A DNA stretch of 64,000 nucleotides from the IMG/VR virus record IMGVR_UViG_3300043567_000723; one strand, given 5' to 3'. Positions 12,722-34,641 of this stretch are shown here, one piece after another. The stretch is from a virus. Lineage: Duplodnaviria; Caudoviricetes. The number at the start of each line of letters is the position of its first letter. The stretch's first letter is position 1. A program made the translations under genes and the position numbers. The notes below the pieces were generated by a model that did no database searches, was not told where the DNA came from, and saw only the letters and a list, made by a program, of their open reading frames with translations.

Positions 12722-17956
<5,235 letters not shown>

Positions 17957-25263: not shown

Positions 25264-25337
25264 TGGTGGAGGTTGGATTCGAACCAACGTCCTCTAGCTT
25301 ATGAGGCTAGCGAGCTACCGGGCTGCTCCACTCCACG
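25264..25337 (-). tRNA. tRNA with CAT anticodon (Met; initiator-like acceptor and D arm), CCA not encoded
   Basis: CGTGGAG-TGGAGCAGCCCGGTAGCTCG-CTAGC-CTCATAA-GCTAG-AGGAC-GTTGG-TTCGAAT-CCAAC-CTCCACC-A. Confidence 0.93.
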
Positions 25338-29521: not shown

Positions 29522-29986
29522 ATGCAAACTTTTCTACCGCTGCCCAGCTTTCGGGCTTCGGCGGCTTGCTTGGACAATAAACGACTTGGAAAACAACGGG
29601 TCGAGTGCAAACAAATTCTTTTGTGTCTGGGCGTTCCAATTGGTGAACACACGCCCGGTAAATCCAGCTGGAGAAATCATCCGGCTGTGCGCATGTGGGC
29701 TGGATCTGAAATAGCCCTGATCGCATACAGCGCCGTAATTTGCAGAGAATGGCGCCGCCGCGGGTTTCGCGATACACTGCACGCGCAGTTCATGGAAGCA
29801 TATGATCGCGAACGGGGCGGACTAATAGTTCCGTATCCGCGATGGTTTCGGAGTCGGCGCTTTCATTCCAGTCACCGTAGTAATTTGCTGCGCAAAGACT
29901 ATAATCACTACTCGCGTTTCGGTTGGATGGAGTCAATTGACTTGCCATACTATTGGCCCGTTAGTGACGTAGCAGTTAATGTTTAA
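29522..29986 (+). CDS. MSMEG_6728 / pyrimidine-dimer DNA glycosylase-like protein
   Basis: MQTFLP..F..SA..LD.KRLGKQRVE..QIL, HPAVRMW, SHRSNLLRKD. Confidence 0.85.
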   Translation: MQTFLPLPSFRASAACLDNKRLGKQRVECKQILLCLGVPIGEHTPGKSSWRNHPAVRMWAGSEIALIAYSAVICREWRRRGFRDTLHAQFMEAYDRERGGLIVPYPRWFRSRRFHSSHRSNLLRKDYNHYSRFGWMESIDLPYYWPVSDVAVNV

Positions 29987-29991
29987 TATAT

Positions 29992-30064
29992 GCCGGTGTA
30001 GCTCAGTTGGTAGAGCCACTGATTTGTAATCAGTAGGTCGTCGGTTCGAGTCCGACCGCCGGCT
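29992..30064 (+). tRNA. tRNA-Thr(TGT), CCA not encoded
   Basis: GCCGGTG-TA-GCTC-AGTTGGTA-GAGC-C-ACTGA-TTTGTAA-TCAGT-AGGTC-GTCGG-TTCGAGT-CCGAC-CGCCGGC-T. Confidence 0.97.
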
Positions 30065-30066
30065 TT

Positions 30067-30257
30067 ATGGCAGATACGCGGGGCGCGCGTTTAACGCTTG
30101 AAGTGATAAACGTATCGGGCTGATCCCCTGAGCGGACGAAGCTTGCGGACGGGGAAGAAATGCAGAGTTGATCGCTGCTGTTGTGTACCCGTATTAAATC
30201 CTGAAATGACAGGAAAACAAAAATTTATCACAGCCGGTTCGACTCCGGCCTGCCATT
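30067..30257 (+). ncRNA. Unclassified 191-nt tRNA-like RNA (acceptor stem + T arm + long insert)
   Basis: ATGGCAG/CTGCCAT 7-bp stem; GCCGG-TTCGACT-CCGGC T arm; GTGATAAA/TTTATCAC helix; starts 2 nt after tRNA-Thr. Confidence 0.75.
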
Positions 30258-30263
30258 ATTAAT

Positions 30264-30272
30264 TGGTATAAT
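30264..30272 (+). promoter_or_regulatory. Extended -10 promoter element (TGnTATAAT)
   Basis: TGGTATAAT followed by GGAGG SD and ATG 30299. Confidence 0.55.
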
Positions 30273-30298
30273 CCATAGTTAGTCACGGAGGACTTGCT

Positions 30299-30727
30299 AT
30301 GGATTTTCATATCAGCCTTAAAGATATCAATACATTAGCGCCAACTGAGATTGACGAGATATACAACCGGTTGTCTGTGCCGGGTCGCAATATGCGCGAC
30401 GAAATCTCTAAGCGTTATATCGAACGCTGGCCGGGTGAGCACGAAGCCATGACGATGGCGCTAATCCACCAAAACGGTTTATTTGTTGCGTGGGTTGGTT
30501 CTCGACCTTTTAAAGAAAAATTCAAAGGCAAGATGCTCGACGTTCAAACAGTCGAGTGTTTTACAGACCCAGAACTACGGCGCCGCGGTATTGCGCAGCT
30601 TGGTTTACAAGCGCTTATAAGTGCCGGCGTAATTAATAGAGACAAACCCGTGTCTGTGTACGAAAAATCTGTAGTTAAAATGGCGGAGCGCTGCGGATGC
30701 AAGTTCGTGGTGTTGTGTATTTCATGA
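30299..30727 (+). CDS. GNAT-family acetyltransferase
   Basis: VECFTDPELRRRGIAQ acetyl-CoA binding motif A. Confidence 0.75.
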   Translation: MDFHISLKDINTLAPTEIDEIYNRLSVPGRNMRDEISKRYIERWPGEHEAMTMALIHQNGLFVAWVGSRPFKEKFKGKMLDVQTVECFTDPELRRRGIAQLGLQALISAGVINRDKPVSVYEKSVVKMAERCGCKFVVLCIS

Positions 30728-30984
30728 AACGATATCACGACGAAAAACACATCATTGATAAACGCATTAAAAACTATCGGCTAATCAATGCTGGTTGGTT
30801 ATCTGCTGTAACAGATTCAAACAAAAAACAAAACGCTATACCCGAGGGTCGTTATAGAAAAACGGCGCGCTGTGGTGGCTGCGGTCGTGCGCGTTGCCAG
30901 CTGTGTCATCCAGAAAAATATCCAAAAAGAAAACCAACCAGAAAAGAAATTCAATTCAAAAAGGATGCTGAAACAAATGAGTGA
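30724..30984 (+). CDS. Small basic Zn-finger-like hypothetical protein
   Basis: CGGC..ARCQLCHP. Confidence 0.6.
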   Translation: MKRYHDEKHIIDKRIKNYRLINAGWLSAVTDSNKKQNAIPEGRYRKTARCGGCGRARCQLCHPEKYPKRKPTRKEIQFKKDAETNE

Positions 30985-31207
30985 GCCAGAATCTGTGCTC
31001 GATTTGCCTATCACTGATTTAAACCTGAGCGTGCGTTGCCGCAAGGCTGCGTCAAAGCTAAACGTGCTTACGATTGGAGATCTCACGCGCCGCAGCGTCA
31101 GCGATCTACTGGAGTGCAAGAATTTTGGCGTGACTAGTTTAAAGGAAATGCGCGAAAAGCTATCAGAACGAGGGCTTACGCTGAGCGGCGACAGTTTGCC
31201 GCAATGA
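30977..31207 (+). CDS. Stand-alone RNA polymerase alpha subunit C-terminal domain
   Basis: LDLPITDLNLSVRC..A..L.V.TIGDL..S..DLL..KNFGVTSL.E..EKL..GL. Confidence 0.9.
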   Translation: MSEPESVLDLPITDLNLSVRCRKAASKLNVLTIGDLTRRSVSDLLECKNFGVTSLKEMREKLSERGLTLSGDSLPQ

Positions 31208-32561: not shown

Positions 32562-34439
32562 TCAATATCCAAAATAACTAGATCCAATTGCGTCATCGGC
32601 CCAATCGTCATCATCAACAGGCGTTTGGGCTCTTACAGTGCGTTCGCTTAACCGCGCAACACCTGCAATCTCTGCAAAGTTGGGCCACGCGTTGTTTACA
32701 TGCCAAAGAGCTGAGCAGCCTAAATTGACAGCCTGCGCAAAGTCGTCTGTCAATAACGTATTGCGCGTAATCGTGTAAATGTCGCCGCCCAATCGCGACT
32801 CTGCTTTCTCTTCCACCAACGCAAGAAAATCTGAAATCAAACCCGGCGAATCTTGCGACGCCCAGTCGTACTGAAAGAACCGGACTTGTTTTAGTTTAAT
32901 AGCCTGACACGTGTACAACAGCGATCTCGTTTTATCGAGGCTGTAGTGCGCGCGATGGTTAATTTCTGTTGGTGGTTTATAGACCATCAAATCCTGCGAT
33001 GCGGAGCGAACAAGCCGCAACGCAAGGACTCGCTCAAGATTAAACCCAGCCTGCACCATGACCGTTTCACGGACCGTGCCGGCGCCAGTGTAATCGTGAG
33101 CGACAAAATCGCAATTAAACAAATTAGACCAGCGCATACACTCAACGGCTTCGGCTAAGTGATCTCCACCAATAAGGAGACGTTTAGCCCAAAGCACATC
33201 GATTGTTCCATCGGGCCGGAATCCCAGCACAGACAGCACGGTAAAACTGACACCTGCTTCTCCGCCACCGCCCCAGTCGATCGCTAAAATGCGGTGTTTG
33301 TAATGCGACAGATTTGTAAAACACTTGGGATCTGGTTCTTTTTTGTTTTCCCAGTCTAGCAGGCATGCAGCTTTCAAATCAGTTTCGCTGATGAGCTTCT
33401 GACCGGTATCAACACTTTCTCCCATAACTTCGTTGTAGAACTGGGCTTGGGTCATATTCCCAAAGCCCTCACGTTTCAACAAAAGCGTAGACCACTTTTC
33501 AGGGTCGGAGAAATGAAGTGGCAGAATCATCTGCGGTACATGATATCCGGAAAACTGCCAGCGGCGTTCGGGATATCTGTGCACCCAGCGACCGTGTCGG
33601 GGGCTTACAGGCTTCCGGCATTTCGCGCATACGGTGCCCGGATACTTCTCGCTGATTTGATCACTGTACGGGCCGATCATTGCGTCTAAATCATATTCAA
33701 GCGCTGGAATGTTCCAGTGCTTACATGAATGACACGGAATGAACCATTCGGCTTGTGATGACCGTTTATACAAACCATAGATTAAGTTATCTAGAGTTTT
33801 TGGTGTACCCGTGTAATAACTAGTTGCCCAGCGCGAGTAAGACATGGTTTCTTGAATGATTGGCACATGATCAGGATCCATGTCTTGAACTTCGTCAATG
33901 CATACGCGGTCTGCAGACACACCGCGAATTCTGTCCGAATCAAGCAACGCGAAACTAAACAACATCATCGAGTTGTTTTTGAAAGAGCGTTGCAACACAG
34001 AGTTCTCTGTTGACGTTCCACTCCACTGCGCTTTCACCGGCGACTGATCTATAAATGGACGCACATAGTTGTTTGAAAACCGCCTAATTTGTTCATACAG
34101 CGGTGTAATAAACAACGTCTTAAAAAACGGTATAGAGTTGGCAACTACAACTCCATGCGCTGCTAGACTGGTCGATTTTGATACCTGCCGACCCGTGCAC
34201 CACACTTGATTTTTAGGGGTGAGTAACCTAAAAAGGGGGGCAAACGGAAAATGGTTCTGGAGACTATATGGCCGCCCATTAAGATTCAGAACCATCGGCA
34301 AAATTGGCTCCAACGACGGAAACGCGTGTTGCTGAGCCAATTCCTTTAATACAACCGCGCGTGCTTGTACAGAAGCCGCGTCTGTTGGGTTGATTGAGAT
34401 TAATTCCTGTATGAGCGCTTGAACGCCGGCGGACGGCAT
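32562..34439 (-). CDS. terL: Terminase large subunit (GpA-like)
   Basis: Walker A GRQVSKST, Walker B VCIDEVQD, coupling GTPKT, WFIPCHSC Zn site, nuclease AIDWGGG and DDFAQA; start may be 34481. Confidence 0.9.
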   Translation of the reverse strand: MPSAGVQALIQELISINPTDAASVQARAVVLKELAQQHAFPSLEPILPMVLNLNGRPYSLQNHFPFAPLFRLLTPKNQVWCTGRQVSKSTSLAAHGVVVANSIPFFKTLFITPLYEQIRRFSNNYVRPFIDQSPVKAQWSGTSTENSVLQRSFKNNSMMLFSFALLDSDRIRGVSADRVCIDEVQDMDPDHVPIIQETMSYSRWATSYYTGTPKTLDNLIYGLYKRSSQAEWFIPCHSCKHWNIPALEYDLDAMIGPYSDQISEKYPGTVCAKCRKPVSPRHGRWVHRYPERRWQFSGYHVPQMILPLHFSDPEKWSTLLLKREGFGNMTQAQFYNEVMGESVDTGQKLISETDLKAACLLDWENKKEPDPKCFTNLSHYKHRILAIDWGGGGEAGVSFTVLSVLGFRPDGTIDVLWAKRLLIGGDHLAEAVECMRWSNLFNCDFVAHDYTGAGTVRETVMVQAGFNLERVLALRLVRSASQDLMVYKPPTEINHRAHYSLDKTRSLLYTCQAIKLKQVRFFQYDWASQDSPGLISDFLALVEEKAESRLGGDIYTITRNTLLTDDFAQAVNLGCSALWHVNNAWPNFAEIAGVARLSERTVRAQTPVDDDDWADDAIGSSYFGY

Positions 34440-34473
34440 CTCAAGCGCACTATTTGCATGATCTGGTTTAACC

Positions 34474-34641
34474 ATGACCAACTATAACAATTCGGGTAGC
34501 GAGTTTGAATTTCAATGGGTAGAGGAAGCCGTAAAATTTACAGGTTATGTGTTCCTTGCCGGCCTCGTTGGCCTATCGCACGCGGCTAGCTCGGCATACG
34601 AGATAGCCCGTGATGCGATCAAAGAAACAACTCGCAAGTAA
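34474..34641 (+). CDS. Small hypothetical membrane protein (55 aa, below ORF-track cutoff)
   Basis: MTNYNNSGSEFEFQWVEEAVKFTGYVFLAGLVGL..., divergent from terL. Confidence 0.45.
   Translation: MTNYNNSGSEFEFQWVEEAVKFTGYVFLAGLVGLSHAASSAYEIARDAIKETTRK

Follow-up and report, generated by a model that had tools for sequence, protein, structure and literature searches.

The tRNA clusters of phages have been known for fifty years to contain tRNA-like stable RNAs, such as species 1 and species 2 of T4, whose purpose was never found. Phage-encoded transfer-messenger RNAs (tmRNAs) are, to our knowledge, on record for few phages (mycobacteriophages, Bacillus phage G). The T4 species 1 RNA, rnaC, is a stable RNA without known function (PMC3014915, PMC9697503). 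Here we describe an element from a 64,000-nt stretch of a Caudoviricetes virus (IMG/VR record IMGVR_UViG_3300043567_000723), the whole of which we call the window. The element occupies positions 30067-30257 of the plus strand and, as a first-pass annotation of the window had stated, begins 2 nt past a tRNA-Thr(UGU) gene (29992-30064). Comparison with relatives indicates that it is a real, uncatalogued structured RNA gene that is conserved in phages. It had been called unclassified and remains so after a cmscan of Rfam 15 and an ARAGORN run, both without a match on it; genes of this kind are missed by annotation, and the record annotation does not cover the element either.

We compared eight distinct sequences of the element from six lineages, 187-204 nt long including the discriminator, and derived their structure from RNAalifold on all eight and from our own counts of pairs. 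Over the 48 modelled pairs, 381 of 383 pair cells (99.5%) are canonical, and compensatory double changes occur in 19 pairs, some of them inside the insert that the RNA carries. Control models in which partners were slid by 1-3 columns gave 32-40% canonical cells and 0-6 pairs with double changes, and none of 2000 shuffles equalled the observed canonical pairing. The fold of a single sequence barely beats its shuffles (z = -1.9), and the case thus rests on the comparison with relatives. A check of covariation among homologues had been proposed together with the idea of a conserved tRNA-mimicking phage RNA, placed for release by tRNA processing; with homologues in six lineages and this number of double changes, that idea is supported.

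The outer part of the RNA is a tRNA body. The perfect 7-bp acceptor-like stem first read in the window (ATGGCAG 30067-73 / CTGCCAT 30250-56, discriminator T 30257) and the canonical T arm adjoining it (GCCGG 30233-37, TTCGACT, CCGGC 30245-49) are both present, and in 8/8 sequences a 7-bp acceptor stem is stacked on a 5-bp T stem whose loop is of the UUCRANY type. The 5' acceptor strand reads ATGGCAG, GCGGTAG, GCAGCAG or GCGGCAG, and lineages differ in the discriminator, which is U, G or C. Pairing in the D-like hairpin is 100% and includes a double change from A-U to G-C, and the GGG of its loop is invariant. Where a tRNA cloverleaf has a 5-bp anticodon stem and a 7-nt loop, the element has an 8-bp helix, P2, separated from the T stem by the single nucleotide A 30232 and carrying a compact domain of about 112-125 nt that comprises hairpin Ha, helix P3 enclosing hairpin Hb, and hairpin Hc. 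The tRNA covariance model (RF00005), which gives the neighbouring tRNA-Thr 72 bits, had no match on the element at E up to 10.

Helix P2 (GTGATAAA/TTTATCAC) had already been noticed from the window. It exists and covaries, but lies at 30103-30110 and not at 30093-100, the inner coordinates given by the first-pass annotation being too low by 10 (CGTAT is found at 30111-15 and TTTATCAC at 30224-31). Two further pairings proposed there, an ATACG/CGTAT pseudoknot and a TCCCC/GGGGA hairpin, form only in close relatives of the window and are broken in the other lineages, ATACG being instead part of the D-like hairpin (30076-80 / 30086-90); a TCCTG/CAGGA hairpin is retained in relatives as a stem of 3-5 bp. 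Pseudoknot PK1, which crosses P2, reads GCGU/ACGC in L109, pair 30098:30140 changing from U:A to G:C in a double change. A GGCU/AGCU helix of an early RNAalifold fold is disfavoured by L109, and PK1 was preferred to it. The loop of Ha follows the pattern YURAUCN (30120-26, 5-7 nt), with a U-A to G-C double change at 30115/30131 in its stem, while a stem stands at the position of Hb in every lineage, in differing sequence (CCGG/CCGG, GCGGG/CCCGC, GCUUG/CAAGC). The contact modelled between these two loops, PK2, is GAUC:GAUC in five sequences, a G:U variant in L040, and AAUC with GAUU in L125 and L126, so that pair 30122:30173 is G:C in five sequences, G:U in one and A:U in two. Finally, PK3 may form: it is compatible with all lineages but not proven, its variation being limited to A-U to G-U changes with no double change.

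Table 1. Positions in the window of the element, its parts and the neighbouring genes
Feature	Position	Strand	Observation
Whole tRNA-shaped RNA gene	30067..30257	+	190 nt plus discriminator, CCA not encoded; model R1 209 bits, E 1.5e-63
Acceptor stem	30067-30073 / 30250-30256	+	7/7 pairs canonical in 8/8 sequences; 4 pairs with double changes
Connector	30074-75		invariant AU
D-like hairpin	30076-80 / 30086-90	+	5 bp, ACGCG/CGCGT; loop GGGYG
Spacer strand between D-like hairpin and P2	30091..30102	+	12 nt
PK3, possible pairing	30091-94 / 30194-97		UUAA/UUAA
PK1	30096-99 / 30139-42		GCUU/AAGC, crosses P2; 4/4 pairs in all sequences
P2 helix	30103-30110 / 30224-30231	+	8 bp, in place of anticodon stem; 63/64 cells canonical; 4 pairs with double changes
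Hairpin Ha	30111..30134 (30111-12/30133-34 and 30115-19/30127-31)	+	stacked on P2; all pairs canonical
PK2, loop-loop contact	30122-25 (Ha loop) / 30170-73 (Hb loop)		4-5 bp
Invariant joiner and PK1 partner	30135..30142	+	GACG (30135-38), then AAGC (30139-42)
P3 helix	30149-53 / 30188-92	+	encloses Hb; 38/39 cells canonical; double changes in 4/5 pairs
Hairpin Hb	30162..30178	+	GCAG/CUGC, inside P3; loop with UUGAUC
Invariant UUAA	30194..30197	+	8/8 sequences; contains the TAA read earlier as a stop codon
Hairpin Hc	30199..30214	+	3-5 bp, variable 6-nt loop; core 3 bp canonical throughout, one double change
T arm	30233..30249	+	5-bp stem, invariant loop UUCGACU; 40/40 cells canonical; 2 pairs with double changes
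Acceptor 3' strand with discriminator U	30250..30257	+	
Two-nucleotide spacer UU	30065..30066	+	U at -1 beside the inferred RNase P cleavage site
tRNA-Thr(UGU)	29992..30064	+	upstream partner in the presumed dimeric precursor; ARAGORN; Rfam tRNA model 72.4 bits
denV-like pyrimidine-dimer glycosylase gene	29522-29986		upstream of tRNA-Thr
TGGTATAAT box	30264..30272	+	extended -10-like candidate promoter of the downstream GNAT-like gene
GNAT-like gene	30299-30727		downstream of the TGGTATAAT box
Collagen-repeat tail fibre	13625-17956		
Large terminase	32562-34481	-	

The topology of the element is like that of tmRNA, in which a tRNA-like domain closes a P2 helix bearing an insert, and positions 8-9 of E. 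coli tmRNA are AU, as they are here. The first-pass annotation had proposed a half-size tmRNA with a non-degron tag; such an RNA would be charged, enter stalled ribosomes and add a short peptide encoded between 30133/30162 and the TAA at 30195. The frame from GCA 30162 to TAA 30195-97 is indeed open in the window, and it stays open from a conserved NCG-GAC-GA block to the conserved TAA there and in L040. It is nevertheless lost in 6/8 sequences, including L111, which is 95% identical and carries 1-nt indels; half of the eight sequences lack a stop codon upstream of their 3' end, and the encoded peptides bear no relation to one another. The tag peptide was therefore rejected by the frame analysis over the eight sequences. 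The search with the tmRNA model matched only 17 nt of T loop, with 16.6 bits where the gathering score is 47, and ARAGORN found no tmRNA on the element. Pairs 1:72 (A-U or G-C), 2:71 and 3:70 vary across lineages, and pair 3:70 is G-C in seven sequences and A-U in one, never G:U. AlaRS requires G3:U70, and the discriminator matters in most synthetase systems; the lack of G3:U70 and the varying discriminator make a conserved charging identity unlikely. Moreover, the clade possesses a true, full-length tmRNA, which co-occurs with the element in one genome (G001) and has the T arm alone in common with it. Taken together, we consider the tmRNA reading refuted by the comparative data and give it next to no credence.

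This genuine tmRNA, of 344-357 nt and with 97-150 bits against RF00023, was present in 8/8 near-complete clade records searched, where it first surfaced through unexpected matches of R1, our structure model of the element, to tmRNA 3' ends. Its acceptor stem is GGGGGCG/CGCCUCC, with G3:U70, its discriminator is A, and it adjoins tRNA-Leu(UAG) and tRNA-Glu(UUC); the tags are of the ALAA type, such as GAHAPALAA, and were called by ARAGORN in some records. G001, which is 98% complete, carries it at 181274-181630 on the minus strand (locus L145) in addition to the element; the other tmRNA loci are L146, L147 and L153-L157, and these loci lie outside the 64-kb window. Homology between the element and the phage's own tmRNA was rejected on the same ground, only the T arm being common.

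That phages of this clade clearly invest in the tmRNA pathway, and that the element combines an acceptor/T/D body with a P2-like helix, would also fit an inhibitor or modulator of ribosome rescue, in which a tRNA-like-domain decoy titrates SmpB or some other partner of tmRNA, an action proposed for the domain-only RNA of mycobacteriophage DS6A. A phage RNA consisting of the tRNA-like domain only has been described, and inhibition of tmRNA by a similar molecule does not depend on its capacity to be charged (PMC4131195; PMC11915505). However, no SmpB gene was found in five related records, and for a phage with a functional-looking tmRNA of its own and no SmpB, titrating the SmpB of the host would be self-defeating. 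The similarity to the tRNA-like domain of tmRNA ends at the T arm, and a conserved, knotted core of 120 nt would be left unexplained. We regard this explanation as quite improbable.

With the glycosylase gene upstream of tRNA-Thr as lead, 80 related IMG/VR loci were collected. In most of them, the promoter box and the GNAT gene come immediately after tRNA-Thr, and the element is missing. L009/L010 and L040 (identical in sequence to L088) have it, and L013 has a deleted remnant. Protein-cluster look-ups in ENA, JGI and Logan assemblies yielded the close variants L109 (= L110) and L111 (= L112), and the diverged intact lineages L125 and L126 (= L127 and L170). tRNA-Thr stands upstream in every lineage, and each copy of the element lies directly behind it, while the flanking glycosylases are 61-70% identical across lineages. 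Exact-motif scans of IMG/VR and nhmmer searches across all loci gave no further members, and a scan of JGI metagenomes returned known lineages only. Among 185,579 prokaryote genomes of GTDB, we obtained only chance matches in GC-rich genes, and among 50,697 phage records of INPHARED, only tRNA-Thr matches. In the window, the element is the sole strong match of R1, which across five whole phage records matched ordinary tRNAs and the tmRNA 3' end only. The family thus appears to be confined to one clade of freshwater phages.

Loci L104-L108, L119, L120 and L122 are without the element, and their GNAT and glycosylase proteins fall into the 90%-identity clusters of those in the window. The junction reads GGCT-TTTAGTTGGTATAAT without the element, versus GGCT-TT, the element and TATTAATTGGTATAAT with it, and a contig in one lake metagenome joins 30064 to 30263. 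The presence/absence polymorphism comprises exactly the tRNA-like unit, in near-identical phages of the same lakes, which suggests that the element has an accessory function. Two copies, L013 (3514-3605) and L173 (1014-1101), share an internal deletion between both UUAA motifs; their T loop is mutated and their acceptor strands are unpaired. Copies without the core have gone on to lose the T loop and acceptor pairing, showing that the tRNA body is not retained for its own sake. This suggests selection on the whole RNA rather than on the tRNA body alone.

Such degenerate copies, the many relatives without the element, its tandem arrangement with tRNA-Thr and, in L126, a T arm identical to that of the neighbouring tRNA-Thr could be taken as signs of a functionless, decaying tRNA gene, or of a tRNA with an intron or insertion. 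The covariation contradicts this: compensatory changes in 19 pairs, some in the insert, have accumulated among lineages whose glycosylases are as diverged as noted above. In addition, splicing could restore no anticodon stem-loop, the insert matches no Rfam intron or ribozyme family, and the true remnants look different, having lost pairing and T loop. Decay is thus a very improbable account.

The same patchy, accessory distribution is typical of counter-defence genes, and the tRNA body is conserved while the acceptor-stem sequence is free, which would suit a decoy or sponge in the shape of a tRNA, one that occupies a host enzyme or defence recognising this body. As one form of the ligand-binding idea, candidate targets are nucleases recognising the acceptor end or the elbow, the CCA-adding enzyme, and EF-Tu. 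tRNA-targeting immunity is well documented (e.g. PMC12851939). On the other hand, anticodon nucleases could not be decoyed, since the element has no anticodon loop; it is not linked to any gene of defence or counter-defence, and a simple decoy of the tRNA body has no need of the strongly conserved core. We hold a decoy to be unlikely, though less so than rescue inhibition or decay.

The explanation that we favour, and think probable, is a stable non-decoding RNA built on a tRNA scaffold and matured by tRNA-processing enzymes, with the knotted insert as its working part. The kept tRNA body consists of the acceptor/T stack with its canonical T loop, the 2-nt connector, and the D-like hairpin with GGG, whereas a compact, pseudoknotted domain occupies the place of the anticodon arm, and conserved coding or charging features were not found in the eight sequences. 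Going by what RNase P, 3' trimming and the CCA-adding enzyme are known to accept as substrates, the element would be co-transcribed with tRNA-Thr, and RNase P would cut at U(-1), which would also free the 3' trailer of tRNA-Thr; the base at -1 is U in 7/8 sequences and C in one. Host enzymes would then trim the 3' end and add CCA. The tRNA body would serve maturation and stability, and the knotted insert would be the effector, probably binding a host or phage protein or another ligand, while the RNA would be neither aminoacylated nor admitted to the ribosome as a tRNA or tmRNA.

Several points weigh against this explanation. The lineages number only six, and three of these are closely related; PK1 and PK2 are each backed by one double change, and PK3 by none. 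A D-like hairpin of 5 bp with a 5-nt loop is unusual in a tRNA body, as is a spacer of 12 nt. The single metatranscriptome compared with the region covered the generic tRNA part only, and just 14% of the words sampled occur in two other RNA runs. RNase P cleavage, CCA addition and the absence of charging are steps that we infer, and the binding of a ligand by the knotted core is putative. A bolder version of the favoured explanation, which we consider doubtful, holds that the core, with its invariant joiners GACG, UUAA and GA, its loop-loop contact and its spacer pairing, is a new ligand-binding or catalytic fold on a tRNA chassis. If this were true, the core might capture a host defence protein or a signalling molecule, and natural 'tRNA-scaffolded aptamers' might be a general phage strategy, T4 rnaC being a further case.

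Processing could also be the purpose of the RNA itself. The element begins 2 nt past a tRNA 3' end, a site typical of the hepatitis delta virus (HDV)-like theta ribozymes (PMC10879173), and its core is doubly pseudoknotted, so that a self-cleaving or processing RNA maturing the 3' end of tRNA-Thr could be envisaged. However, its 5' strand pairs with the extreme 3' end by the T arm, as opposed to an internal P1 followed by P1.1, P4 and P2; no Rfam ribozyme family matched it at E up to 10, and phages without the element keep the same tRNA-Thr. We judge a theta-like role highly unlikely, and an HDV-like or theta ribozyme was rejected for its mismatched topology. Two minor candidates were set aside as well: CsrA-type GGA repeats, the second GGA not being conserved in L040 by eye, and a small open reading frame from ATG 30206, whose ATG is missing in L109 and L040.

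The window derives from a phage of about 207 kb from lake-water metagenomes (longest contig on record 207,520 bp), and the region is contained in sequencing runs of lake-water and freshwater metagenomes. A second phage tRNA, tRNA-Met(CAU), lies at 25264-25337 of the minus strand, and related complete records have 8-9 scattered tRNAs each. The TGGTATAAT box is retained in copies with and without the element and marks the 3' limit of the insertion/deletion polymorphism; a simple two-hexamer promoter scan did not pick it up. Downstream of it, the ribosome-binding site of the GNAT-like gene lies within a hairpin (30273-30302; CCATAGTTAGTC, loop ACGGAGG, GACTTGCTATGG), whose loop bears the Shine-Dalgarno sequence and whose 3' strand includes the ATG. 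Judged by eye, this hairpin is retained in relatives with differing stem sequences, which suggests translational control. Two genes downstream, at about 30977-31207, is a 76-aa protein with an RNA polymerase alpha C-terminal domain (PF03118), placed by its offset from L110:965-1195 and annotated through precomputed results in related loci. Pfam and PHROG annotation of the neighbouring genes revealed no RNA-related partner.

Relatives differ around the cassette of tRNA-Thr and element. In L040 (3516-3758), an 80-aa open reading frame lies between tRNA-Thr and the element, followed by sequence resembling the tRNA-Thr 3' end; in L009 (3527-3964), a 145-aa frame lies between the glycosylase gene and the tRNA; and in L123 (1-900), an HNH endonuclease gene is just upstream of an apparent 3' part of the glycosylase gene. 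Such reading frames inserted around the cassette look like traffic of the homing-endonuclease type. In L126 (1295-1563), the identity of the element T arm, GTCGG-TTCGACT-CCGAC, with the adjacent tRNA-Thr T arm was noted by eye and hints at gene conversion, or at birth of the element by duplication of tRNA-Thr.

None of the known systems compared fits the element as a family. Engineered tRNA scaffolds (e.g. PMC3753655) likewise keep the acceptor, D and T arms, accept an insert at the anticodon-stem position and are processed and stabilised by tRNA enzymes, whereas the element is natural, its 12-nt spacer between the D-like hairpin and P2 pairs into the insert, and a single nucleotide stands as its variable loop. 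Like tmRNA (SsrA; RF00023), it has an acceptor stem and T arm closing a long helix that replaces the anticodon arm, and a pseudoknotted insert, and its T-arm sequence is nearly identical to that of the clade tmRNA; by contrast, it is half the size, lacks G3:U70, the A discriminator and a conserved tag frame, and has a true D-like hairpin. YrlA, a Y RNA-like tRNA mimic of bacteria and phages, reportedly has its 5' and 3' ends in a Ro-binding stem and its acceptor-like stem capped, whereas the ends of the element lie in the acceptor stem, and cmscan matched it to no Rfam 15 family. What the two share is a non-coding RNA with tRNA-like T and D arms, phage-encoded in some cases (PMC4201824). The DS6A RNA resembles it as a tRNA-like domain without a coding part, for which partner binding is proposed (PMC4131195, PMC11915505), but the element is without tmRNA homology and has a large conserved core. 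Theta ribozymes are, like it, small pseudoknotted RNAs immediately 3' of a phage tRNA gene (PMC10879173); the element is ~3x larger, has another pairing topology and a T arm, and matches no ribozyme model. It has neither the nested double pseudoknot of the HDV type nor a match to the HDV model, in this comparison of pairing topology and model matches.

The nearest precedent is the T4 species 1 RNA (rnaC; NC_000866 70908-71046). Together with species 2 RNA (rnaD), it is a small phage RNA ending a run of tRNA genes, its T arm (CCGGG-UUCGAAU-CCCGG) abuts a terminal closing stem, and non-tRNA hairpins lie between. It differs in being 139 nt long, with an imperfect closing stem, no evident D-like hairpin and an interior of two long hairpins, as opposed to P2 with a pseudoknotted core of three hairpins, and nhmmer with the element profile had no match in the T4 locus (L113). 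Beside the T4 RNAs, the present family is a new and comparatively well-supported case, with a full tRNA body and a knotted core; phages of the same lake populations offer natural knock-outs, and R1 provides a defined structure model for searching other viromes. The occurrence of the element and of a genuine tmRNA in this clade suggests that these large freshwater phages manipulate the tRNA and translation machinery of their hosts by more than one route, and identifying the ligand of the element could explain a whole class of phage tRNA mimics.

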